Assembly (NCBI GenBank): GCA_964545795.1
Contig: CAZJGC010000003.1
Coordinates: 738 to 64,737, forward strand
Direction of reading: 5' to 3'
Source of the DNA: an uncultured archaeon
GTDB taxonomy: Archaea > Aenigmatarchaeota > Aenigmatarchaeia > Aenigmatarchaeales > DAIDAN01
DNA: 64,000 bases
The translations under genes were made by a program, and so were the position numbers. The notes under the pieces are model-generated. The model did not search any database and was not told the DNA's origin. It saw only the letters and a program-made list of their open reading frames with translations. This document shows positions 3,361-52,440 of this stretch, in pieces (within the stretch, counting starts at the first letter, position 1; each line of letters opens with the position of its first letter).

Positions 3361-4065
3361 CTATGGAGTAGTTATTAATTTATTTATTTTTTTCAGCAGA
3401 CCACTGCCATATTGCGCTGCTTTTTTCGGTTTTTCCACAATCTCTTCAGGAATAACCATTCTTGCAACTTCCCTGAGAATATATTTTCTTATTCCATTGT
3501 TTATTTTCAGATTTAAAGGCAAAGAAAAGGCAAATTCAATTATTTCTTTATTAAGAAACGGCATAATTAACTTTTTTCTAAAATATTTTGCTATCTTAAC
3601 TTCAAAACTGTTTTTAACAAGCCTGTCATAATCTTTTTTCATCTCTTCTTCCTTATTTTCAATTCTCAAGTACTTTGCATAGCCGCCAAAAAGTTCATCT
3701 GCGCCAGCCCCCAAAACAATTGCTTCTTCCTCGCAACTCCCTGCCACAAAATATACCGGCAACAAATAAGAAAGCACAAAATTGTCATTAACCCCGACTA
3801 TGTTTGAAAGAGTATCTATGTGTTCTTTTATAGAACCCTCAACTTCTATCTCCCTAAGATTGAGCCTTAGTAATTTAGCAGAATGTTCTGCAGAAGCAAA
3901 ATCATGGCACCCCGGAACTCCTGCTGTATAAAGATTTACACTTGCTTTCTTTGATGCAAAAAATGCAACAACAGAGCTGTCAATGCCTCCTGAAAAAGCC
4001 ACAGCAACTTTATCAGGAAATTCCTGTTGTTTCAACAATTCAAGCAACCTTAGTTTATAGTCCAT
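3361..4065 (-). CDS. asparagine synthase-like PP-loop ATP pyrophosphatase (AsnB C-terminal domain family)
   Basis: PP-loop SGGIDSS motif and ELFGGY motif. Confidence 0.6.
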   Translation of the reverse strand: MDYKLRLLELLKQQEFPDKVAVAFSGGIDSSVVAFFASKKASVNLYTAGVPGCHDFASAEHSAKLLRLNLREIEVEGSIKEHIDTLSNIVGVNDNFVLSYLLPVYFVAGSCEEEAIVLGAGADELFGGYAKYLRIENKEEEMKKDYDRLVKNSFEVKIAKYFRKKLIMPFLNKEIIEFAFSLPLNLKINNGIRKYILREVARMVIPEEIVEKPKKAAQYGSGLLKKINKLITTP

Positions 4066-4113: not shown

Positions 4114-4136
4114 ACCCCTTTGTTTCCTATGGAACT
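4114..4136 (-). promoter_or_regulatory. origin recognition box (ORB-A) with G-string
   Basis: Minus-strand read GTTCCATAGGAAACAAAGGGGT. It matches the archaeal ORB consensus (TTCCA-nn-GGAAAC-GAA-GGGGT) at nearly every position. Confidence 0.55.
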
Positions 4137-4174
4137 TCACGTATAAGTATTATTGATTATACGTTAATCACGTT

Positions 4175-4197
4175 ACCCCTTCATTTCCTATGGAAAA
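4175..4197 (-). promoter_or_regulatory. origin recognition box (ORB-B) with G-string, direct repeat of ORB-A
   Basis: Minus-strand read TTTTCCATAGGAAATGAAGGGGT. Overlaps the last codons of the PAP2 ORF. Confidence 0.55.
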
Positions 4198-4654
4198 TTG
4201 CACGTGAATATTTTGTGAACATTTTTATAACAACATCGCCTATAAAATAACCTAACACAGAACCTCCAACAACATCATACCATGTATGAAACCCTGTATA
4301 AACCCTGCCAAATGCCGTAATTAACCCTGCTATTAAACCAACAGCAAAAACAACCTTGTTCACGCGCATTATTCTTGTTTCACAGAATGCAAGTGAAGCA
4401 TGTGAACTTGGAAATGAAGGAGATTTTCCTAAACCATAAGGCCTTGGAATATTGAAAACCATTTTCAAAGCTTCCGAAACACCAAGAGCAACAAAAAATG
4501 CCAAAACAGATATCTTAGACTTCTGCTTGTCGCCTGTGAAATAAAAATATAACGGTATTATAAAAACCAACAGGAAGGGCAGGAAGGCGGATGCATAATA
4601 AACAGGTTCGCACAAAATCTGACCTGAGCATAAAAATTCATTCATAAAAACCAC
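4181..4654 (-). CDS. PAP2-family (type 2 phosphatidic acid phosphatase-like) membrane phosphatase
   Basis: KxxxxxxRP-like, PSSHA and YTGFHxxxDV motifs; multiple TM segments. Confidence 0.7.
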   Translation of the reverse strand: MVFMNEFLCSGQILCEPVYYASAFLPFLLVFIIPLYFYFTGDKQKSKISVLAFFVALGVSEALKMVFNIPRPYGLGKSPSFPSSHASLAFCETRIMRVNKVVFAVGLIAGLITAFGRVYTGFHTWYDVVGGSVLGYFIGDVVIKMFTKYSRAIFHRK

Positions 4655-4670
4655 ATTTTATAACACTGTT

Positions 4671-7304
4671 TTATATTTTAACAACTGTTCCAACATATCC
4701 GTCCTTCTCAAAATTCAGTTGCCCTCCGCATTCGGGGCACTTGCCAACAAGAGGAATTCTTCTGAAAGACCATTTGCATTTAATGCACGAAACAGCATCA
4801 AAACCCTCCAATATAGTCTCCTGAGCAGGTTTTGATGAAAAAACTTCAAAAAGACTCTTCTGTCTTGAACCTTCAAGAAGTTCAGCCTTATCCACGCCGC
4901 ATGCTTTAAAAATTCTCTCTATAGGAGGCAATATCTGGTTCTCTATATAATATTTTGAATCAATTTCAAGCCCCTTCTCTTTAACATATTCAGGGTCCTC
5001 TGCCCTTTTTGACAAGAGTTGGTTTCCCTTAATTATAACATAAGAAATTCTCTCTCCAACTGTTATGTTTCTTGTCGCATCTCTTGCATTTATCTTCTTT
5101 GCAAGCTCAACATGCGGTTGCACGCCGTCATAACTGTTCAGCGATTTGGTTATTCCTTTAACAATAGAAAGCTTTTCTAATGGTATTTTGCCTTCAGAAA
5201 GGCTTTTTATAACCTCTCTGACGTATTTAGACGCTTTTATTATATCTCCTTCCTTAAGAATTATATTTAATACGTTCATCATTGTTTCCCCTGTAAGTGA
5301 ACACCAATCCCTTCTAACAGTTTCTATTCCCTTCATTTCTATTTTATTTTCACCTTCTTCAAATTTCCAGCCCGCATATCGCTTCTTTGTAATAATAAGG
5401 AATGTTTTGTATGTTTTTTCAAATTTAAGGTTTAAAACTCCGGGCAATCTCTCTGAAACAAACTCAGAAATTTCTCTTCCTAACTTCTCTGCCTCCTCAA
5501 TATCAGATGTATTTGTTTCCACAAAAATAGAATCAGTATCGCCATAAACAACTCTTACAGGAAAATTCTCTTCAACCATTTTTTGCGTTTTCAGAATATT
5601 CTCCCTGCCATACGCCGTAACCGAGTTGGCAACATCCATAACATAAAGCCTTGCCCTTAAATAGCCTGTATAACCATATAAACTGTTAGCCATATCCTTT
5701 AAAGCCAACTGTTTTGCATTTAGCAATCTTTTTTCATCTCCTTCTGAAGATTTCATCCTTTTCTTAACAGCCGCGCGCGCTTCCATTAACTCCTTAAGAA
5801 CAGCTGGCAAAACCCCTTCCCTTACTTCAGGTTTCACAAATTTTACTCCCTGTGGGGTTGTGAAATGTTCAACATCATATTTATTATTAATAAGCAGAGT
5901 AGATGGGCATATATTGAATGTGCGTATTATGGACGGATATAGGCTTGTGAAATCAAGAACAACCACGCATTTATCTTTATACAACCCTGTAATGGGTTCA
6001 AGAACAATTGCGCCTTTAAGTCCTGCCTCCTCTCTTTCCTCTTTATATTTCATCAACTCGGCTGCTTCAGGTTTGCACGGCATTAGCATATTTCTCTTTC
6101 TAAATTCATGCAAAAGCCTGCACTCATGCCTCTGCGACTGTCCTCCTAAACTGTCCTGCAAAAGCAGACCTGATATTTTAGAAAGCTCAAAAAACTTGTC
6201 AATAAGGTTTTTTTCAATAACAAGAGCCAAAGCAAGCTCGGAGTCAACGCGGCAATACTCAACAAATTTGTTTAAATCCGCTGTATCCCCATTCCATAAT
6301 TTTTTCATTTCCTTTGGTCCTCCTACTTCAATTTTTTTCTTTCCAAGCATAGCCTCCGCTATTGTCCCCAAATCATATCTTTTAAATTTAACCCATGGAT
6401 CTCTTTTTATTATCTCATAAGGGTCAACAATAATGCGTCCTGATACAGAACACATATAACTGTTTTGCAGTTTTCTGCAGACAGAAGGCTTGCTTGACCT
6501 GCCAAAAGAACTGGAAACCCCAAGAACTTCCATTCTCTTTACAATATAAGGCAAATCAAAGTTGTTAATGTTATAACCTACTATAATATCAGGGTCAAAA
6601 GACTCTATTATATCGCTAAACTTTTCCAGCATCTGTTTTTCATCAGAACATATTATTGCATTGCCGTTCATACACTGCTTGCTAATAAGAACAGTTGTTT
6701 TTTTGCCGTTAAAATCAGGATAAAAAGCCATGCTTATCATGATTATCGGGTCTTTTTCAAAATCAGGCATTCTGTCATCGCTCTCAGATATGCATTCAAT
6801 ATCAAAACTAACATAACGCAGGGGCGCGTTCCCTTCTTTTTCTATTGTTCTTACTTTGTCTGCATCTATAGCCCTGCATTTTACGGTTTTCGTAAATGCT
6901 GGAGAACCTTCAATTTCAACCCATGACATTCCCCATAAATCATAATCAACCATAAACCTGTACTTAAAAAGAATGTCAGCCTCATAAACAGTTCCATAAG
7001 GTTTTAATCTCTCCTTTATTTCAGGTATTTTTCCCGGGTCTTTGCCCGTAATTTTCAAAACCTGTTTGGACTCATTATAACCAATTGGTATTATTTTTTT
7101 CTCAACATTTATAGAAACATTATAATCTTTTAACACTTCGCGTATTTTATCAGTGTCCTGAGAATCTATATAACAGTACGGAAGGAAATTCTTAAAGAAA
7201 GCGCATACTGTTTCTCCTTGTTCTGTTTTTCCAAAAAGCCTTACCAAAGGCTTTCCATTAAGCATAACATAATCACAATCAAGAATCTGCATTGCAACTC
7301 TCAT
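4671..7304 (-). CDS. polB: family-B DNA polymerase (PolB) with C-terminal zinc ribbon
   Basis: Exo motif FDIE, YGDTDS polymerase motif, K-x3-NS-x-YG motif, and C-terminal Cys4 ribbon (CIKCKW...CPECGG). At 877 aa there is no room for an intein. Confidence 0.95.
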   Translation of the reverse strand: MRVAMQILDCDYVMLNGKPLVRLFGKTEQGETVCAFFKNFLPYCYIDSQDTDKIREVLKDYNVSINVEKKIIPIGYNESKQVLKITGKDPGKIPEIKERLKPYGTVYEADILFKYRFMVDYDLWGMSWVEIEGSPAFTKTVKCRAIDADKVRTIEKEGNAPLRYVSFDIECISESDDRMPDFEKDPIIMISMAFYPDFNGKKTTVLISKQCMNGNAIICSDEKQMLEKFSDIIESFDPDIIVGYNINNFDLPYIVKRMEVLGVSSSFGRSSKPSVCRKLQNSYMCSVSGRIIVDPYEIIKRDPWVKFKRYDLGTIAEAMLGKKKIEVGGPKEMKKLWNGDTADLNKFVEYCRVDSELALALVIEKNLIDKFFELSKISGLLLQDSLGGQSQRHECRLLHEFRKRNMLMPCKPEAAELMKYKEEREEAGLKGAIVLEPITGLYKDKCVVVLDFTSLYPSIIRTFNICPSTLLINNKYDVEHFTTPQGVKFVKPEVREGVLPAVLKELMEARAAVKKRMKSSEGDEKRLLNAKQLALKDMANSLYGYTGYLRARLYVMDVANSVTAYGRENILKTQKMVEENFPVRVVYGDTDSIFVETNTSDIEEAEKLGREISEFVSERLPGVLNLKFEKTYKTFLIITKKRYAGWKFEEGENKIEMKGIETVRRDWCSLTGETMMNVLNIILKEGDIIKASKYVREVIKSLSEGKIPLEKLSIVKGITKSLNSYDGVQPHVELAKKINARDATRNITVGERISYVIIKGNQLLSKRAEDPEYVKEKGLEIDSKYYIENQILPPIERIFKACGVDKAELLEGSRQKSLFEVFSSKPAQETILEGFDAVSCIKCKWSFRRIPLVGKCPECGGQLNFEKDGYVGTVVKI

Positions 7305-7327
7305 GCTACATCCTTTGTTTTTGAAAC

Positions 7328-8203
7328 TTAAATTATTTTTTTATTTATTTCAACCCTGCCTGTATGCAACTCTATCTTTGCTGTTTGTTTCTCATTAATG
7401 CCAATAATTTTCACTCCATTATAATCTTTAATACCAACACCAGAGAAGCACAAAAAATAATCAGGAACTTCATCAAGTATGTTTTCTTCATAAATTCTTC
7501 CGGGATAGAAGCATCTTTTGCTAAGCACGGTTACAGGGTCTTTTGTATTAAAAACAAGAATCAATATATTATTAATTTTAACATAAACAGGATTTGAAGA
7601 GGCGAACAAAGAGTCTTTCTCTATTCTTGTCTCATTATCAAAAAATATTTTATAATCTCCGCAGTTTCCATTGAAACAAACAGTGCATTTCTTTCCTGAA
7701 ATTTTCGGAGTGTTTTTTATATTTGGATATTCTACAAACTCGGCATGCAGCACTTTATCTTTTACAATGCCGGAAACAAGAACAATTTCATCATTTATCA
7801 GTTTAATGCCATCTTTCAATCTTACCTTTATTTCGCCTGTTGGGTCTTCAATTTCAGCTTCATTGTTCTTAACATTTTTAACAATGCCTATAACAGATGC
7901 ATCACCAAAAACATTTGATATAGAAACAGTGTTTTTCTTTTTCACAAAATATTCGCTCATTTTCTGATAATATCTATTGTAAACTGCAACCAATTCATGA
8001 ACAGTATATTTCTTTTGCTCATGTTTCTTTTCAACCACTTCAAAAACATTTTCAAAAAAATCCTCTCCTATAACCAATGGTTTTTCTTTTTTTATTCGCT
8101 CAATAACTGCTTTAATCTCATGCTCGTTTAACCTGTTTATATGTTCGGCTGCTTTTGGTTCAACAAGAACTCCCATATCCATTATTTCTTTTATCACATT
8201 CAT
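7328..8203 (-). CDS. PolD small-subunit (DP1)/B-subunit-like protein: N-terminal DP1-type helical domain plus OB fold; phosphoesterase motifs not detectable
   Basis: N-terminus VIKEIMDMGVLVEPKAAEHI...PLVIGEDFF is like the DP1 N-terminal domain. OB-fold segment ASVIGIVKNVKNNEAEIEDPTGEIKVRLKD...IVLVSGIV matches the RPA/DP1 pattern xEDxTGxIxVxL. Synteny oriC-cdc6-DP1 as in PolD-bearing euryarchaea. No GDxHxG, GDxxDRG or GNHE motifs in the 130-aa C-terminus. Confidence 0.4.
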   Translation of the reverse strand: MNVIKEIMDMGVLVEPKAAEHINRLNEHEIKAVIERIKKEKPLVIGEDFFENVFEVVEKKHEQKKYTVHELVAVYNRYYQKMSEYFVKKKNTVSISNVFGDASVIGIVKNVKNNEAEIEDPTGEIKVRLKDGIKLINDEIVLVSGIVKDKVLHAEFVEYPNIKNTPKISGKKCTVCFNGNCGDYKIFFDNETRIEKDSLFASSNPVYVKINNILILVFNTKDPVTVLSKRCFYPGRIYEENILDEVPDYFLCFSGVGIKDYNGVKIIGINEKQTAKIELHTGRVEINKKII

Positions 8204-8213
8204 ACAAAACTCC

Positions 8214-9401
8214 TTAGTACAAAACCTCGCAAAGAACTTTCTTCATTTTCTCTTTGACAGTGTCGTCAACCATAAGATTTATTATTTTTGTGCGCCCATA
8301 TCTTCCTCTTGAAACATTTTTTGTGCTTATTATTCCAAACATATCAAGTTCAGATATAAGGTCTGAAACTCTTCTTTGAGTCAAAGGTTTTAACCCATAC
8401 TTCACGCAGTTTTTCTGATACTCTGAAAGAACATCTCCTGTAAGAACTTCTTTATTGTTTTCCAGCAAATCCAATATGGTCTGCATAACAATTTGGCTTT
8501 GTTTTGGCTGCGTCTTTACAATTTCAACAAATTTGTCAACATTTATTTTCTCTTCTGCTGAATCAACATGTTTTATTGTTACTTTCCTGCTTCCAGAACG
8601 CTCGGCAATCTCTCCTGCAACGCGGAGCAGATCCAAAGCCCGCCTTGCATCCCCATGCTCCTGTGCAGCAAGCGCAGCGCACTTCTCTATAACACCTTCT
8701 TCTATAACTCCTTCCGAAAAAGCAATTTCAGCCCTCTGCCTCAATATATCCTTTATCTGCGAAGCATTGTATGGAGGAAAAATAAGTTCTTCCTCAGAAA
8801 GAGATGATTTAATTCTTGTATCAAGAGTATTTACAAAACTAAGGTTGTTTGTTATTCCTATCAAACATATTTTTGCATTTTTCAATTCCTGATTTATTCT
8901 TGTCAGATTATAAATAATTTCATCTCCTGTCTTCTGCACAAGAGCATCTATTTCATCAATTATTAAAATCAAAATCTGTTTTTCAGAATCTATAACATCA
9001 AGAAATATTTTATATATCCTGTCAGTAGGAAGTCCTGTAAAAGGAACTTCTTTTCCAAGTTCTTTTAGTATTGTTGCCAATACCCTGTATTCTGTGTCTG
9101 CCACTTTTTTAAGTTTGCAGTTTATATAAACAGATTTTACTTTAAATTTCCTACTAGTTTCAATAAGTTTTTTTGTAACATAACATGAAATCAATGATTT
9201 CCCTGTTCCTGTTCTACCATAAATAAAAACATTGCTTGGTTTTGAACCAACAAGGGCAGGTGCCAAAATTTTGCCAAGTTCCTCTATCTGTTTTTCCCTA
9301 TGCAATATTTTACCAGGAACAAAACAAACAGAAAGAGCATCCCTGTCATTAAATAAACATTGAGATTGTATAAAATCATTAAATATTTTTTCCAAACTCA
9401 T
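8214..9401 (-). CDS. cdc6: Orc1/Cdc6 replication initiator
   Basis: AAA+ Walker A (GRTGTGKS) and Walker B (LILIIDEIDAL) with C-terminal winged helix; lies next to an AT-rich ORB-bearing region. Confidence 0.95.
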   Translation of the reverse strand: MSLEKIFNDFIQSQCLFNDRDALSVCFVPGKILHREKQIEELGKILAPALVGSKPSNVFIYGRTGTGKSLISCYVTKKLIETSRKFKVKSVYINCKLKKVADTEYRVLATILKELGKEVPFTGLPTDRIYKIFLDVIDSEKQILILIIDEIDALVQKTGDEIIYNLTRINQELKNAKICLIGITNNLSFVNTLDTRIKSSLSEEELIFPPYNASQIKDILRQRAEIAFSEGVIEEGVIEKCAALAAQEHGDARRALDLLRVAGEIAERSGSRKVTIKHVDSAEEKINVDKFVEIVKTQPKQSQIVMQTILDLLENNKEVLTGDVLSEYQKNCVKYGLKPLTQRRVSDLISELDMFGIISTKNVSRGRYGRTKIINLMVDDTVKEKMKKVLCEVLY

Positions 9402-9438
9402 TTTATTACAATGGAAATAAAGGTATTTATATTTTTAT

Positions 9439-9464
9439 AACCTTTTTTTCCTATGGAAATTCAC
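9439..9464 (-). promoter_or_regulatory. ORB element 1 of oriC (mini-ORB dyad, weak G-string)
   Basis: AACCTTTTTTTCCTATGGAAATTCAC; same dyad core as ORB-A and ORB-B. Confidence 0.5.
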
Positions 9465-9623
9465 TAAAATACAGTGACACACCCTTTCTTTTCCTTTAGA
9501 AACATTTTTAGAAATTAAATAAGTAATAAAAATTATTATATTAACTTTTCAGTAATAATTTTCATATAAATATAACATTGTTATATACTATATTTAATTT
9601 AAAAATAAATTATAAATAACAAA

Positions 9624-9649
9624 TTTCTATAAGAAATGATAGGGGGTCT
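9624..9649 (+). promoter_or_regulatory. ORB element 2 of oriC (degenerate dyad plus GGGGGT G-string), inverted relative to ORB-1
   Basis: TTTCTATAAGAAATGATAGGGGGTCT aligns 16/21 with the ORB-B reverse complement. Confidence 0.45.
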
Positions 9650-9667
9650 AAAATAATAATTATAAAT

Positions 9668-10384
9668 TTATGAGAATTTATTGTGCAAAATTTCTATAAT
9701 TTTTTCTTCAGGTGTCAATGTTATAGCTACAGGTATTCTTTCAACAAAAGCTATTCTTTTCGCGATTTCATCAACGGATTTTATATTTACAAATATTACA
9801 ATTCCTGGTTTAAGATTGGATACTTTTATGGCTATCATTGGGCTTCTTCCGCGTTTAAGATTAGTGAATATAAGAGCCCTTTCTGTTGTCAATCCATACA
9901 ATTTTACAAGGTCTGTTGGAGGCAAATTTATTATTGCTTTAAGGCTGTCTATTATTGTATATCCATAAATATTATTATTTGACAATTCTTCATGAACAAC
10001 AACATCAGCTCCAATAATTTTGCAGAAATTTTTTATTGAAACAGGTTTGTTAAATTCTTTTAAACTTATAACAGCATCAGATAAAATTGTTTCTGTTGGA
10101 AGAGAAGAGAAATATTTTATAATATTTCCGCCATTTCTTTCATCAATATTTATAAGGGCTTCAACTATGCGTTTTATAATTTTTATTCCCGGACTTTTTC
10201 TTCTGCCTGATTCATAATCACTTATAACAGACGGCATTATATGCATTTCATCTGCAAGAGTTTTTTGCGATAATTTAAAAATATTTCTCCATTTTTGTAT
10301 TGTTTTTCCATGGTCATTGCTTAATACAATTTCTCCTGCTATTCTTTTTAGTAAATTTTCTTTTGCTAATGAATTTTTATCCAT
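9668..10384 (-). CDS. XRE-type HTH transcription regulator with a conserved archaeal C-terminal domain (COG1395-like)
   Basis: HTH segment LSQKTLADEMHIMPSVISDYESGRR near the N-terminus. Confidence 0.55.
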   Translation of the reverse strand: MDKNSLAKENLLKRIAGEIVLSNDHGKTIQKWRNIFKLSQKTLADEMHIMPSVISDYESGRRKSPGIKIIKRIVEALINIDERNGGNIIKYFSSLPTETILSDAVISLKEFNKPVSIKNFCKIIGADVVVHEELSNNNIYGYTIIDSLKAIINLPPTDLVKLYGLTTERALIFTNLKRGRSPMIAIKVSNLKPGIVIFVNIKSVDEIAKRIAFVERIPVAITLTPEEKIIEILHNKFS

Positions 10385-29066: not shown

Positions 29067-30038
29067 CTAAGGGTCTCTTATTCCTTCCGGTTCAACTGCA
29101 AACACAGCTTCGCCTTCAGGCAGATAAGGCGAGTCTATAAGCCTTGCTATTCTTGTGCTTCCTTTGCTTTTTCTGAGGTAAACCCTGAATGTTGCCTGAT
29201 GCCCTACAATATGCCCCCCTATAGGAACTGTCGGGTCTCCGAAGAGCATGTCAGGTTTTGACATTACCTGGTTTGTAACATAAACTGCTATGTTGTAAAC
29301 ATCAGCAAGCCTTTGCAGTGTATGCAAATGCCTGTTTAGTTTTTGCTGTCTTGTTGCAAGTTCGCCTCTGCCTGAAAAATCAGACCTGAAATGAGACATC
29401 AAACTATCCACAACAATAATTTTTATGTTTTTTTCTTTTATTAAGTCGGAAGCTTTTTCTGCAAGCACAACTTGATGGTCGGAGTTGTAAGCCCTTGCAA
29501 CATAAATATTTTCCAGAACAGTGTCAGGGTCAAGATTTAAGCCTTCTGCTATTTGCCTTATTCTCTCAGGTCTGAATGTGTTTTCAGTGTCTATTATTAA
29601 TGCAGAACCTTCAAGCCCTCCCTGTTCTTTAGGGAGTTGCGCAGTTACAAGCAATTGAAAACCAACCTGCGACTTTCCTGAGCCGAATGCTCCATAGAAT
29701 TCTGTTATTGCCTGAGTTTCTATTCCTCCTCCAAGAAGTTCATCAAGATTTTTGCTGCCTGTTGTAATTTTTGTAATCTGTTTTCTTTTTTCAAAAACCT
29801 TTGCAGCGCTCTCATATCCCATATCAAGGGCGCTTCTTGATGCTTCAATAATCTTTTTTGCAGTAGCTTCTCCTATGTCTGCTGCATCTGCAAGTTCTGA
29901 TGGTGATGCTGCTGCTATTGCCATAAAGTCAATATAACCTGCTTCTTTAAGTTTCTCAGCTGTTTTTTCGCCGACTCCCGGCAGGTCAGATATTGTTTCC
30001 ATGCTTCTTCTTTTTTCAATTTCTTCATCAACGCTCAT
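29067..30038 (-). CDS. radA: RadA recombinase
   Basis: N-terminal HhH ([12 protein letters not shown]), Walker [10 protein letters not shown], Walker B KIIVVDS. Confidence 0.95.
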
Positions 30039-30041
30039 TAC

Positions 30042-30983
30042 TTACACCCCTTTTAGTTGTTCAATAATCTTTTTTGATTCATATACAGGATCTGCTTTTT
30101 TGAAGTCATTTATTATAATTTCGTTTCTTTCAAACATCTGATTTCTTCTTACGTTGCCTGTGAATATAAATTCTGTTCCTAATATGTCTGTTAATGAAGG
30201 CTTGGATGAAGTCAATTCTTCTGCTTTAAAGCCTATAAATTTTTCTGCAATGTCTCTAAAGAATACAGCCCGCATATTTCCATATCCGTCGTCTATGACA
30301 GAAGAAGCAACCACTGTTTTTTTAGGTTCAACTTCTCCATGTTCAGTGCATTTCTTTTCTTTTATTGATTTGTTGCATTGTGGGCATACATCATAAAAAA
30401 CAGGTTCAAACATCTGAAGCACTGCCGCGCGTATTGTGCATGAACTTCCGTGCTTTAATTCTGATATATTTGTTTCAATAATTTTTTCTTCAAATTTCAC
30501 AGGCTCTTCATCAACCTGTTTTATTTTTCCATCTTTGCCAAGCCTTATTTCCACTCCACTCATTTTGTCTTCTCTTGTATATGCTCCGCTTATTTCAATA
30601 ACACTATTTTCTTTTATGTCTTTTGCAAGTTCAATCTGCTCGTCCCATAAAGACATTCTTATTTCTCCTGTTTTGTCAGCAAGAAAGAGGTTTAATACTT
30701 TTCCTTCTTTTCCATCTCTTTCAAAAGTTCTTAATGGCGAAATTTTTGAGACAGTAGCAGTTAGCGTAAGCGCTCTTATTCCAGGTATTATGTTTTTTAT
30801 TTCTATTTTATGATCTGTTTTTTCTATTAGATTCAAACCCAGTTCTTTTGCAACAATATATGCTGCGCCTTCTTTTGATACAAGATTTGAAAGTTCTGTT
30901 TGTTTGTCAAGAATTTTTTTTGCAATTTCATCTTCGTTGTATCCAGCTTCAACAATTTTTTTCAAAACAGATTCATAGGACAT
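30042..30983 (-). CDS. rpa: replication protein A-like single-stranded DNA-binding protein (OB folds plus zinc ribbon)
   Basis: GKVLNLFLADKTGEIRMSLWDEQ is a canonical RPA OB motif. Zinc ribbon CPQCN...CTEHG. The start was moved to MSYESVL because the track extends 18 codons upstream. Confidence 0.75.
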   Translation of the reverse strand: MSYESVLKKIVEAGYNEDEIAKKILDKQTELSNLVSKEGAAYIVAKELGLNLIEKTDHKIEIKNIIPGIRALTLTATVSKISPLRTFERDGKEGKVLNLFLADKTGEIRMSLWDEQIELAKDIKENSVIEISGAYTREDKMSGVEIRLGKDGKIKQVDEEPVKFEEKIIETNISELKHGSSCTIRAAVLQMFEPVFYDVCPQCNKSIKEKKCTEHGEVEPKKTVVASSVIDDGYGNMRAVFFRDIAEKFIGFKAEELTSSKPSLTDILGTEFIFTGNVRRNQMFERNEIIINDFKKADPVYESKKIIEQLKGV

Positions 30984-31063
30984 TAAAACACCGATGCAGT
31001 TTATCTGCAAACACTTCCTCTTTAGTCTAATAATCAATGTTCAGTTATTTATAGTTTTGTATA

Positions 31064-31267: not shown

Positions 31268-31333
31268 GCATGAATATTAAATGGCTGATTTAAATGTTTT
31301 TGCATGCTCAAACAACAATAGTGCAACAGCAAT

Positions 31334-31935
31334 GTGAGAGTTAGCGCTTGAATGCTAACTTTCTTATATTCTCACAAAATGTATTTTTTAACTTTTGATA
31401 AAAACATTTAGACTAACGTAAAATTCAATACTTGCAAAATTATCTGTTCAATTAAACTCTAACAATGCATTAATCCTAACATTTCTTACAATATGTTGTT
31501 TCAGTGGATGTAAAGGCAAACTCTCACATTTCAATTTACTTTTTATGTTTCCGGATAATTTTTATGAAGGAATCACTCACAATAAGTATGTCTAACACTT
31601 AATAACATAGGTTAATCATTTGGGTGAAGTCTCACTTTTCTCTTGCAGCAGAATTATAACAATGTAATATAACATTGTTATTATATGTTGATAATGATTA
31701 ACTCTCACTTTGTTAATTCTATGGAAAAATAATCTGAAATATGTCAAATAACAATATCAATTATCTTTAATCTCACTTTATGCAGTGCAGATTTTAGTTT
31801 AAGGCCTTTCTTTGGTTATGTTAACCCTCTCTTAATGGAAAAATAACGAAATTATTTGCAGAAATCTTCAAAACTCTTGAAAAATGCGCGAATCCTGTTT
31901 TCTTTGCAAAATGCATTAACTCTCACTTTTAATTT
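31334..31935 (+). repeat. dispersed 14-nt motif TTAACTCTCACTTT, about 7 copies and 1 inverted, within an 860-bp gene-free region
   Basis: Exact copies at 31698 and 31916. Variants at 31368, 31518, 31627, 31768 and 31821. Inverted copy at 31334. Hairpins at 31340-31361 and 31655-31680. Confidence 0.7.
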
Positions 31936-32128
31936 TGCGTGGGTTGTTTTATAAAATATATATTATTATTTATATTTTAAGAAATATTTGTAATATAATA
32001 TTTATAATAAAATATATCTTGCAGGATATTTAATAAAAAACATATGACATAAAAAATATATTTTAAAACATAAATAAGAAAACACTAATTTTAAATAGGG
32101 GTAAAGATAATTATGAATAGGTGTTAGT

Positions 32129-32491
32129 GTGAAGAAAGATAATGAAAAGAAAAATATAATTGAAAAAATATTCTTGCATAGCAAACCTGTGCAGATGTTG
32201 ATAAGTCTTAAGAACGAAAGGTCAAAATATACAACGCAGGTTTCAAAAGAAGTTGACTGCACGTATTCTCACACAGTAAAAATTTTGAATATGTTTAAGA
32301 AATTAGGTCTTGTTTCTTTCAGCAAAAAAGGCAGAATAAAGAATGTAAAACTTACAGAGGAAGGGGAAGAGATAGCGCATGAGTTTGAAGGCATTTCAAA
32401 GAAGCTTGCCAGAATTGCTTCGCAACTAAAGGATGATGTTCTTCCCAAGAAGGAAAGCAAAGAAAAATCTAAAGGGTCAAATAAAAAGTAA
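32129..32491 (+). CDS. winged-helix DNA-binding protein (MarR/TrmB-like) with a basic C-terminal tail
   Basis: wH segment QVSKEVDCTYSHTVKILNMFKKLGLVSF. Confidence 0.45.
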   Translation: MKKDNEKKNIIEKIFLHSKPVQMLISLKNERSKYTTQVSKEVDCTYSHTVKILNMFKKLGLVSFSKKGRIKNVKLTEEGEEIAHEFEGISKKLARIASQLKDDVLPKKESKEKSKGSNKK

Positions 32492-32626
32492 CTACTGCTT
32501 TCTTGATATTCTTTTATCAAATCACCAAGGTTATTTGCTCAGAGTGGGTTTTATAAACACCACTTTTATATATGAGTTTTGCCTAAATAAATTTGTTGGG
32601 CTGTTTTAAAAGTAACTATATTTTAG

Positions 32627-32989
32627 GTGAAAAATATGGAAACATTAATGAAATACCTCTATGGCAACCATCCAAAAAGCAAAAAAATAAAGGAACTTGG
32701 CAGAAAAACCCTGGGTATTCTTGTTAAAAACGGGCAAATAGAGCATCTGGAACTGGCTAAGCAGATTGGCGTTAAATTTGAGAAATGGAAAGGTTATGAG
32801 AAGCCTGTCAAAACTTTTTATTCTGTTGTTAATCCGTTAAAAGAGATGCAATTAATAGAATCTATTAAGAGAAAAGAGGGAAAAAAGTTCAAAACAATAT
32901 ATGTTTATACGCCTGACAAATTTGCTGCGAACATGAAAAATTTTGTGAAAATGACAATTGAATTTCTAGAGACAATGAAAGCCAAATAA
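32627..32989 (+). CDS. hypothetical protein, possible wH regulator
   Basis: 120 aa; no strong motif. Confidence 0.35.
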   Translation: MKNMETLMKYLYGNHPKSKKIKELGRKTLGILVKNGQIEHLELAKQIGVKFEKWKGYEKPVKTFYSVVNPLKEMQLIESIKRKEGKKFKTIYVYTPDKFAANMKNFVKMTIEFLETMKAK

Positions 32990-33258
32990 ATTAAGGTTGT
33001 TTTTAACTAAATATAGATTCTATTAGATAAATTTTATAATATATTTCCTTTTATATATTATGTATTATATTTATTAATAAATATAATTTATAATATATCT
33101 AATATAATAGGTATATTAAATAATATATTTTATAAAATATAATAAAAATGGAAAAAGTCACACAAAAAAAGTGAGAGTTCATGGGATTTGTATAGGAAAA
33201 GATAGAAAAATTGGCGAAATACTCGCAAAAATGGCAAAATCTGACAAAATTGCTAAAA

Positions 33259-52352: not shown

Positions 52353-52440
52353 TGGCGCCTGGGACAGGACTCGAACCTGCGACCACCTGGTTTCTGTATA
52401 AATTAACAGCCAGGTGCTCTACCTGCTGAGCTACCCAGGC
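52353..52440 (-). tRNA. tRNA-Asn (anticodon GUU) with a 12-nt canonical intron at 37/38; CCA is encoded
   Basis: Acceptor GCCUGGG/CCCAGGC, D-arm GCUC-AGCAGGUA-GAGC, anticodon stem CCUGG/CCAGG, anticodon GUU at 52405-52407, intron at 52392-52403, T-loop UUCGAGU. Confidence 0.85.

Follow-up and report, generated by a model that had tools for sequence, protein, structure and literature searches.

A predicted Orc1-type chromosomal replication origin beside cdc6 in an uncultured Aenigmatarchaeota archaeon

The 64,000 nucleotides that we analysed (the window) come from an uncultured DPANN archaeon of the Aenigmatarchaeota, and contain at positions 9402–9667 a gap between two minus-strand open reading frames of the window, 8214–9401 and 9668–10384. 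The first of these is cdc6, the ATG of which lies 1 nt from the gap. The features on which this account draws are listed here by their positions in the window; the ORBs, and the other elements assigned to the gap, are predictions.

4114–4135, minus strand: ORB X1, GTTCCATAGGAAACAAAGGGGT
4175–4196, minus strand: ORB X2, TTTCCATAGGAAATGAAGGGGT
4181–4654, minus strand: PAP2 phosphatase gene, the 3′ end of which overlaps ORB X2
4671–7304, minus strand: family B DNA polymerase gene polB, putative B6-aenigma1 type
7328–8203, minus strand: short DP1-like (polymerase B-subunit-like) gene, 291 aa, assigned from weak profile matches
8214–9401, minus strand: orc1/cdc6 initiator gene, 395 aa
9402–9667, no strand: predicted oriC intergenic region, 266 bp
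9405–9426, plus strand: weak ORB-like element, ATTACAATGGAAATAAAGGTAT, close to the cdc6 ATG on its upstream side
9424–9440, minus strand: TATA-like sequence TTATAAAAATATAAATA, putative cdc6 promoter
9436–9464, minus strand: ORB L2, GTGAATTTCCATAGGAAAAAAAGGTTA
9479–9502, minus strand: proximal ORB L3, TTTCTAAAGGAAAAGAAAGGGTGT
9503–9623, no strand: predicted duplex unwinding element, 121 bp
9624–9647, plus strand: distal ORB R1, TTTCTATAAGAAATGATAGGGGGT
9668–10384, minus strand: HTH_3 (XRE-type) gene by Pfam, the far-side border of the predicted origin

With a GC content of 16.9%, against about 34% for the window, the gap is indeed the AT-rich, gene-free region of 266 bp that an earlier, sequence-only reading had described. 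Its letters are identical throughout in an independent Logan assembly (SRR9849955), and the gap is therefore no assembly artefact; furthermore, JGI metagenome 3300023442 encodes the exact Orc1/Cdc6 protein on a contig of 77,299 nt. For structured RNA in the gap, Rfam gave no match and ARAGORN reported no tRNA there. At a distant site in the window, 52356–52440 (minus strand), we noted an Rfam tRNA match of 62.9 bits; the ARAGORN scan of the whole window gave no tRNA.

The product of 8214–9401 matches the Pfam families Cdc6_lid (2.4e-28), Cdc6_C (6.6e-27) and AAA+, which bears out the earlier placement of the gap directly beside cdc6, and its closest named homologues, which come from MAGs of Micrarchaeota, Aenigmatarchaeota and Nanoarchaeota, are annotated as ‘ORC1-type DNA replication protein’. 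We found no second cdc6 paralogue in the 64-kb window. The same block had also been said to hold a DP1-like gene and polB, and both can be recognised: polB is matched by Pfam at 1.7e-118 and its product carries CIKC-13-CPEC (CxxC-13-CxxC) within its last 45 residues, and 7328–8203 is weakly DP1-like. This latter gene matches the NCBIfam profile of the PolD small subunit with E = 1.9e-9, at 37 bits far below the cut-off of 445, and has a weak match (E = 0.049) to Pol epsilon subunit 2 in the PDB; it resembles, weakly, only the N-terminal/OB-fold part of DP1 and is without the full phosphoesterase domain. At the same gene position, Woesearchaeota and Nanoarchaeota relatives encode a full DP1 (OB fold plus phosphoesterase); members of the Aenigmatarchaeota group encode a protein of 267–313 aa that has no Metallophos match and at most an OB-fold match.

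Passages of Kazlauskas et al. (2020; PMC7544198) describe a B6-aenigma1 PolB that co-occurs with an inactivated DP1 in Aenigmarchaeota, in which DP2 is mostly absent. The window resembles that system in the single CxxC...CxxC end of its PolB and in the short DP1-like gene that precedes polB, a match that makes the label ‘DP1-like’ a reasonable one and the system probably one already known. The paper treats the proteins, and we found no mention in those passages of a position beside an origin. In the window, the short DP1-like/polB pair is encoded directly beside the predicted origin. We also noted that the orthologous polB of one relative (locus L086, 11067–15122; 1351 aa) carries an intein, as judged from an Intein_splicing match.

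Within the gap, a repeat search returned L3 and R1 as a 24-nt inverted pair. These two elements have opposite polarity and stand on either side of the predicted unwinding element, such that the G-string of L3 is directed toward cdc6 and that of R1 away from the unwinding element, toward the HTH gene. An ORB-like element with a GGGGGT G-string had been read at 9624–9649, and it is present there (TTTCTATAAGAAATGATAGGGGGTCT); R1 occupies positions −244 to −223 relative to cdc6, as in relatives. The inverted partner that had been proposed for this right-hand element, the dyad TTTCCTATGGAAATTCAC at 9447–9464, also exists, but it belongs to L2: the real partner is L3, which the sequence-only reading had missed, and the dyad at 9447–9464 is part of a predicted third ORB, nearer to the cdc6 promoter. 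Placed between L3 and the start of cdc6, L2 has a perfect dyad, a 5′ GTGAA extension and a weak G-string; its extended GTGAA-TTCCATAGGAAA form is common to a second ORB cluster in the window (see below) and to relatives. The weak element at 9405–9426 has the same position, strand and GGTAT ending (in plus-strand reading) in two relatives, L001 and L002. The TATA-like sequence, 23–39 nt 5′ of the cdc6 ATG, is from its letters a putative cdc6 promoter flanked by ORBs.

The ORBs of the gap are similar to the published euryarchaeal consensus, GTTCCAGTGGAAAC-AAA----GGGGG (PMC1868953), and match 8–10 of its 14 core positions, L3 and R1 only 8–9. Both L3 and R1 are degenerate in having TTCT in place of TTCC. 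The latter is reported to be invariant in Pyrococcus ORBs (PMC1904270); about 20% of the ORBs of relatives carry the same T as L3 and R1. A degenerate pattern for L3 and R1 finds two sites in 64 kb, only those two, against 0.02 expected. On the other hand, the short dyad alone (TTTCYWWWRGAAA, one mismatch allowed) was rejected as a discriminator, with 12 matches window-wide against 9.2 expected; only exact dyad matches and a full ORB matrix have discriminating power.

This 22-nt weight matrix was built from ORB-like matches anywhere in 80 related DPANN cdc6 loci, which were taken from one-genome-per-species archaeal assemblies, with the window excluded. Its consensus, TTTCCAnnGGAAATgAAGGGGT, agrees with the published euryarchaeal one (PMC1868953). 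The maximum over 20 shuffled versions of the whole window was 16.7, and five sites in the 64 kb exceed that value: X2 at 4175–4196 (32.3, the best in the window), X1 at 4114–4135 (31.2), and three in the gap with 18.4–21.9 bits, namely 9481–9502 in L3 (21.9), 9624–9645 in R1 (18.5) and 9438–9459 in L2 (18.4). The sixth-ranked site of the window scores 13.1, and the weak element at 9405–9426, with 11.2, is inside the shuffle range. When the 266-nt gap itself was shuffled, the probability of at least one match of 18 bits or more was P = 0.0002–0.0004; we observed three such matches, on both strands. The ORB matches of the gap exceed chance.

The predicted unwinding element between L3 and R1 has a GC content of 9.1%, within the lowest 0.15% among 121-nt windows of the 64 kb, and is among the three most AT-rich 121-nt stretches of the window. 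It is this part of the gap that is nearly pure A/T. The approximately 155 bp of nearly pure A/T that had been claimed between the dyad at 9447–9464 and the right-hand element is thereby shortened: 9465–9623 has 14.5% GC, and L3 sits inside it. AT-richness as the sole criterion for an origin was rejected, since two other stretches are equally AT-rich, 33029–33149 (5% GC) and 31947–32067 (8.3% GC); neither of them holds an ORB matrix match of at least 13 bits.

Both of those stretches fall in the region 31268–33180, in which 861 nt of non-coding DNA extend from an RPA-like/RadA pair (29067–31037, minus strand) to a small winged-helix gene (32129–32491). In or beside this region the motif AACTCTCACTTT occurs at 31331, 31519, 31627, 31700, 31768, 31918 and 33168; six of the sites match with at most one mismatch, and the window has no other match of that quality. 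The region may be a regulatory array. As an alternative origin, 31.3–33.2 kb was rejected, for it has no ORB match of at least 13 bits and no skew breakpoint (RSS fraction 0.90).

Another key observation is that the layout of the gap recurs in related organisms. Across the 80 loci, ORB matches of at least 18 bits have a density of 2.25 per kb within 700 nt upstream of cdc6 and of 0.033 per kb elsewhere, a 69-fold enrichment. Among the loci that have 450 nt or more upstream of cdc6, 41 of 62 contain, read in the orientation of cdc6, a minus-strand ORB and then a plus-strand one, both facing outward, with an AT-rich gap between them. The median length of this inter-ORB gap is 199 nt, its mean GC content is 16% versus 35.5% for the locus, and it is more AT-rich than its own locus in 41 of 41 cases. 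In the closest relatives (L001, L002, L003, L007, L023, L027 and L029) the distal ORB occupies about −210 to −330, and the proximal ORBs about −80 to −190; the ORB series of the window, at −244, −101, −58 and −25 from cdc6, is the same as that of its closest relatives. The HTH_3 gene, which is syntenic in Aenigmatarchaeota, also stands beside the predicted origin in L002, L003, L007, L027 and L086, and gene orientation in the relatives diverges most at the predicted origin (375 vs 203). The order ORB, unwinding element, ORB upstream of cdc6 recurs across many of the Aenigmatarchaeota, Woesearchaeota and Nanoarchaeota loci examined, and our literature search found neither a paper on this recurrence nor a published ORB-level description for the DPANN lineage of the window. 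As a separate observation, contigs end within 700 nt of cdc6 on its upstream side in 23 of the 80 loci (L001–L080), versus 2 of the 80 on its downstream side; assemblies of the relatives seem to break at the origin, for which the extreme A/T stretch or the repetition of ORBs may be the reason.

We also examined strand composition. Within the window, raw cumulative GC skew is lowest at 9–10 kb, where it is confounded because gene strand changes near the same point; we therefore measured GC3 skew, that is, skew at the third codon position on each gene's own coding strand, for the 60 open reading frames of at least 300 nt in the 64-kb window. Genes directed away from 9.5 kb have a mean GC3 skew of +0.27 (n = 36), and those directed toward it −0.08 (n = 24; Mann–Whitney P = 9e-10). 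The difference persists among minus-strand genes, with a mean of +0.29 for the seven on the left versus −0.07 for the 23 on the right (P = 2e-4), and the lone plus-strand gene to the left of the gap has a value of −0.21, below all 29 on the right. The best-fitting GC3 breakpoint, 9417, separates the midpoint of cdc6 (+0.38) from that of the HTH_3 gene (−0.16), the latter gene being the first of opposite sign; none of 2,000 within-strand permutations reached this fit. A breakpoint at 9535 leaves a residual variance of 0.33; a shift by one gene in either direction raises this to about 0.40, and breakpoints at 4120 and 31700 leave 0.47 and 0.90, respectively. The resolution of the switch is only about one gene on each side. 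On both sides of the gap, G exceeds C on the strand that leads away from it, which by the usual leading-strand rule of prokaryotes is the polarity that belongs to an origin rather than to a terminus.

This GC3 asymmetry (+0.27 versus −0.08) is unusually strong, and there is none in L001–L029 within 7 kb on each side of cdc6. Pooled over the 80 related loci, GC3 skew does not differ between genes directed away (0.089) and toward (0.094), and close relatives have no skew switch at the cdc6 locus; the skew line of evidence is therefore particular to this genome. That the relatives are without the signal would also fit an account in which the switch marks the end of an inversion, an event that flips gene strand and skew together, and in which the ORB-like motifs are non-functional remnants or chance occurrences in an AT-rich spacer. 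An inversion that ends at the gap could, in principle, be the source of the switch, but it would be a coincidence for it to end exactly there, and the motifs are far beyond chance in an arrangement that is kept across dozens of genomes. We regard this account as very improbable.

Within the 64 kb covered, we interpret 9402–9667 as the predicted chromosomal oriC, of the Orc1-1/oriC1 type, of this uncultured Aenigmatarchaeota archaeon, with a probability of roughly 0.85; the rest of the chromosome may hold further origins. The classic archaeal origin architecture that had been proposed from the letters finds support in the neighbouring cdc6, the inverted ORBs, the 9% GC element, the skew switch and the layout shared by 41 of 62 relatives; all the features of an Orc1/Cdc6-type origin that computation can check are present. 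What is predicted is a compact, canonical Orc1-dependent origin, which is an ordinary result of a kind already known. The assignment is useful for the orientation of MAGs, for coverage-based estimates of growth rate and for comparison of replication across archaea; the understanding of archaeal origins is unchanged by this case.

Inverted ORBs around an AT-rich unwinding element form the core of oriC1, the most conserved archaeal origin type (PMC12141716; PMC6742236). The ORBs of Sulfolobus oriC1 consist of a dyad and a G-rich segment, and one Orc1-1 monomer sits on each of them in a defined polarity; ORB2 and ORB3 are inverted around the AT-rich unwinding element, and MCM is recruited between them (PMC12141716; PMC6742236). 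From the geometry that the window shares with Sulfolobus oriC1 we infer the same mechanism; Orc1 binding, MCM loading and autoregulation are carried over from archaeal origins that have been characterised. Orc1/Cdc6 made from the adjacent gene would bind L3 (minus strand) and R1 (plus strand) as monomers of fixed polarity; with both ORBs inverted, their dyad halves would stand beside 9503–9623 and their G-strings would point outward. The winged helix of Orc1 binds the dyad and its AAA+ domain contacts the G-string, so that the dyads would face the unwinding element. Two opposed initiators might then recruit the MCM helicase onto the A/T stretch between them, from which replication would proceed bidirectionally. 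L2 (9436–9464) and the weak element at 9405–9426, as ORB-type sites on either side of the TATA-like sequence, suggest cooperative binding and autoregulation by Orc1, in which they probably take part.

The position of these last two sites, on either side of a TATA-like sequence at the cdc6 ATG, is also what would be seen if the ORBs were mere operators for cdc6 autoregulation, the gap did not serve, or no longer served, as an origin, and replication started elsewhere or by recombination. Thermococcus kodakarensis offers a precedent, in that its ORB-bearing oriC beside cdc6 is reported to be dispensable and origin-independent replication exists in archaea (PMC5663688). However, an operator needs neither a 121-bp stretch of 9% GC nor an inverted ORB beyond it, a layout that is present in 41 of the 62 relatives, and a switch in strand composition with the polarity of an origin falls at the gap. 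We consider it unlikely that the ORBs are only operators.

The predicted origin can be compared with several known ones. Like Sulfolobus/Saccharolobus oriC1 (Orc1-1 dependent, with ORB1–3), it adjoins the initiator gene and, as known for the window from its sequence, has inverted ORBs around an AT-rich element. It differs in that the ORBs of the window are 22–29 nt long, compared with 36 bp in Sulfolobus, in that its flanking pair has TTCT for TTCC, and in that its host, a member of the DPANN, shows only one orc1 gene in the visible 64 kb. Haloferax volcanii oriC1 (Norais et al. 2007, PMC1868953) is likewise intergenic, lies beside orc1 and contains an A/T-rich unwinding element; furthermore, the repeats of the window match the ORB consensus with its G-string, and DP1 is encoded nearby, as in H. 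volcanii. Unlike the window, H. volcanii oriC1 extends over 1,360 bp and has two unwinding elements and a halophile-specific extended G-string; it was tested by ARS assay (PMC1868953).

The third comparison, with the Thermococcales, brings in the second ORB cluster of the window. In these organisms, cdc6 has the ORB cluster of oriC on one side and, on the other, a further cluster within dp1 (Matsunaga et al. 2007, PMC1904270), and Cdc6 was bound at both clusters in ChIP (PMC1904270). The window has the order oriC, cdc6, DP1-type gene that is known from Pyrococcus abyssi and other Thermococcales, and its cdc6, too, is placed between two ORB clusters, an arrangement that is conserved among relatives. 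Unlike that of the Thermococcales, which is 1.5 kb away, the second cluster of the window is at a distance of 5.2 kb; it is situated not inside dp1 but at and after the 3′ end of the PAP2 gene, downstream of polB, and it consists of two tandem full ORBs that are stronger than those of the origin. The DP1-like gene of the window contains only a sub-threshold ORB match, of 8.3 bits, at 7656–7677. A further difference from the Thermococcales is that the predicted oriC of the window is 266 bp long and has few mini-ORBs.

The two ORBs of this cluster, X1 and X2, are in direct orientation, 61 nt apart. They overlap and follow the stop codon of the PAP2 gene, and are separated from the origin by cdc6, the DP1-like gene and polB; X1, the nearer of the two to the gene at 3361–4065, ends 49 nt 5′ of the ATG of that gene. 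A tandem pair of the extended form GTGAAGTTCCATArGAAA....GGGGT also follows PAP2 in L001, L084 and L086. In L001, this pair is between convergent gene ends and therefore cannot be a promoter element. In L023, L006 and L029, too, there are strong ORBs, near the 3′ end of polB.

Since X1 and X2 are the two best ORB matches of the window (31–32 bits), match 10–12 of the 14 published core positions (12 in the case of X1) and are kept in relatives, 4114–4196 might itself be proposed as the true origin, with the site upstream of cdc6 being secondary. It is, however, most improbable that replication starts there. The two ORBs are on the same strand and hence form no inverted pair; neither the 39 nt between them nor the flanks that we inspected contain a long A/T stretch; and the corresponding region of L084 and L086 is not AT-rich, as judged by eye only. 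Moreover, the four minus-strand genes of 4181–9401 carry the skew of genes to the left of an origin, and a breakpoint at 4120 fits worse than one at the gap (0.47 vs 0.33). The skew rules out 4114–4196 as the point of initiation.

With the predicted origin placed at 9402–9667, we tentatively raise the possibility that X1 and X2, which several Aenigmatarchaeota have kept where the block of cdc6, DP1-like gene, polB and PAP2 ends, are a functional second Orc1-binding locus, which could act together with oriC by looping out the 5-kb block of replication genes or could titrate the initiator in the manner of bacterial datA, although we think this less likely than that they have no such role. Were it so, the origin region would be bipartite, as was once proposed for the Thermococcales.

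Relatives from the Woesearchaeota and Nanoarchaeota have one strong ORB 4.4–6.3 kb upstream of cdc6; it falls within the coding sequence of a winged-helix protein about 200–245 aa long. Such in-gene sites are at position 1089 in L017, 694 in L046, 956 in L026, 2106 in L061, 1427 in L049, 2316 in L037, 2217 in L013 and 1374 in L044. The linker in which the ORB lies is variable except for the conserved S-x-G-N-(E/K/D)-(G/R)-V that the ORB encodes. X1 and X2 of the window are the same DNA as the in-gene ORB, outside any open reading frame; that this DNA is coding in those relatives and outside any frame in the window suggests that the DNA motif, and not the peptide, is what selection acts on.
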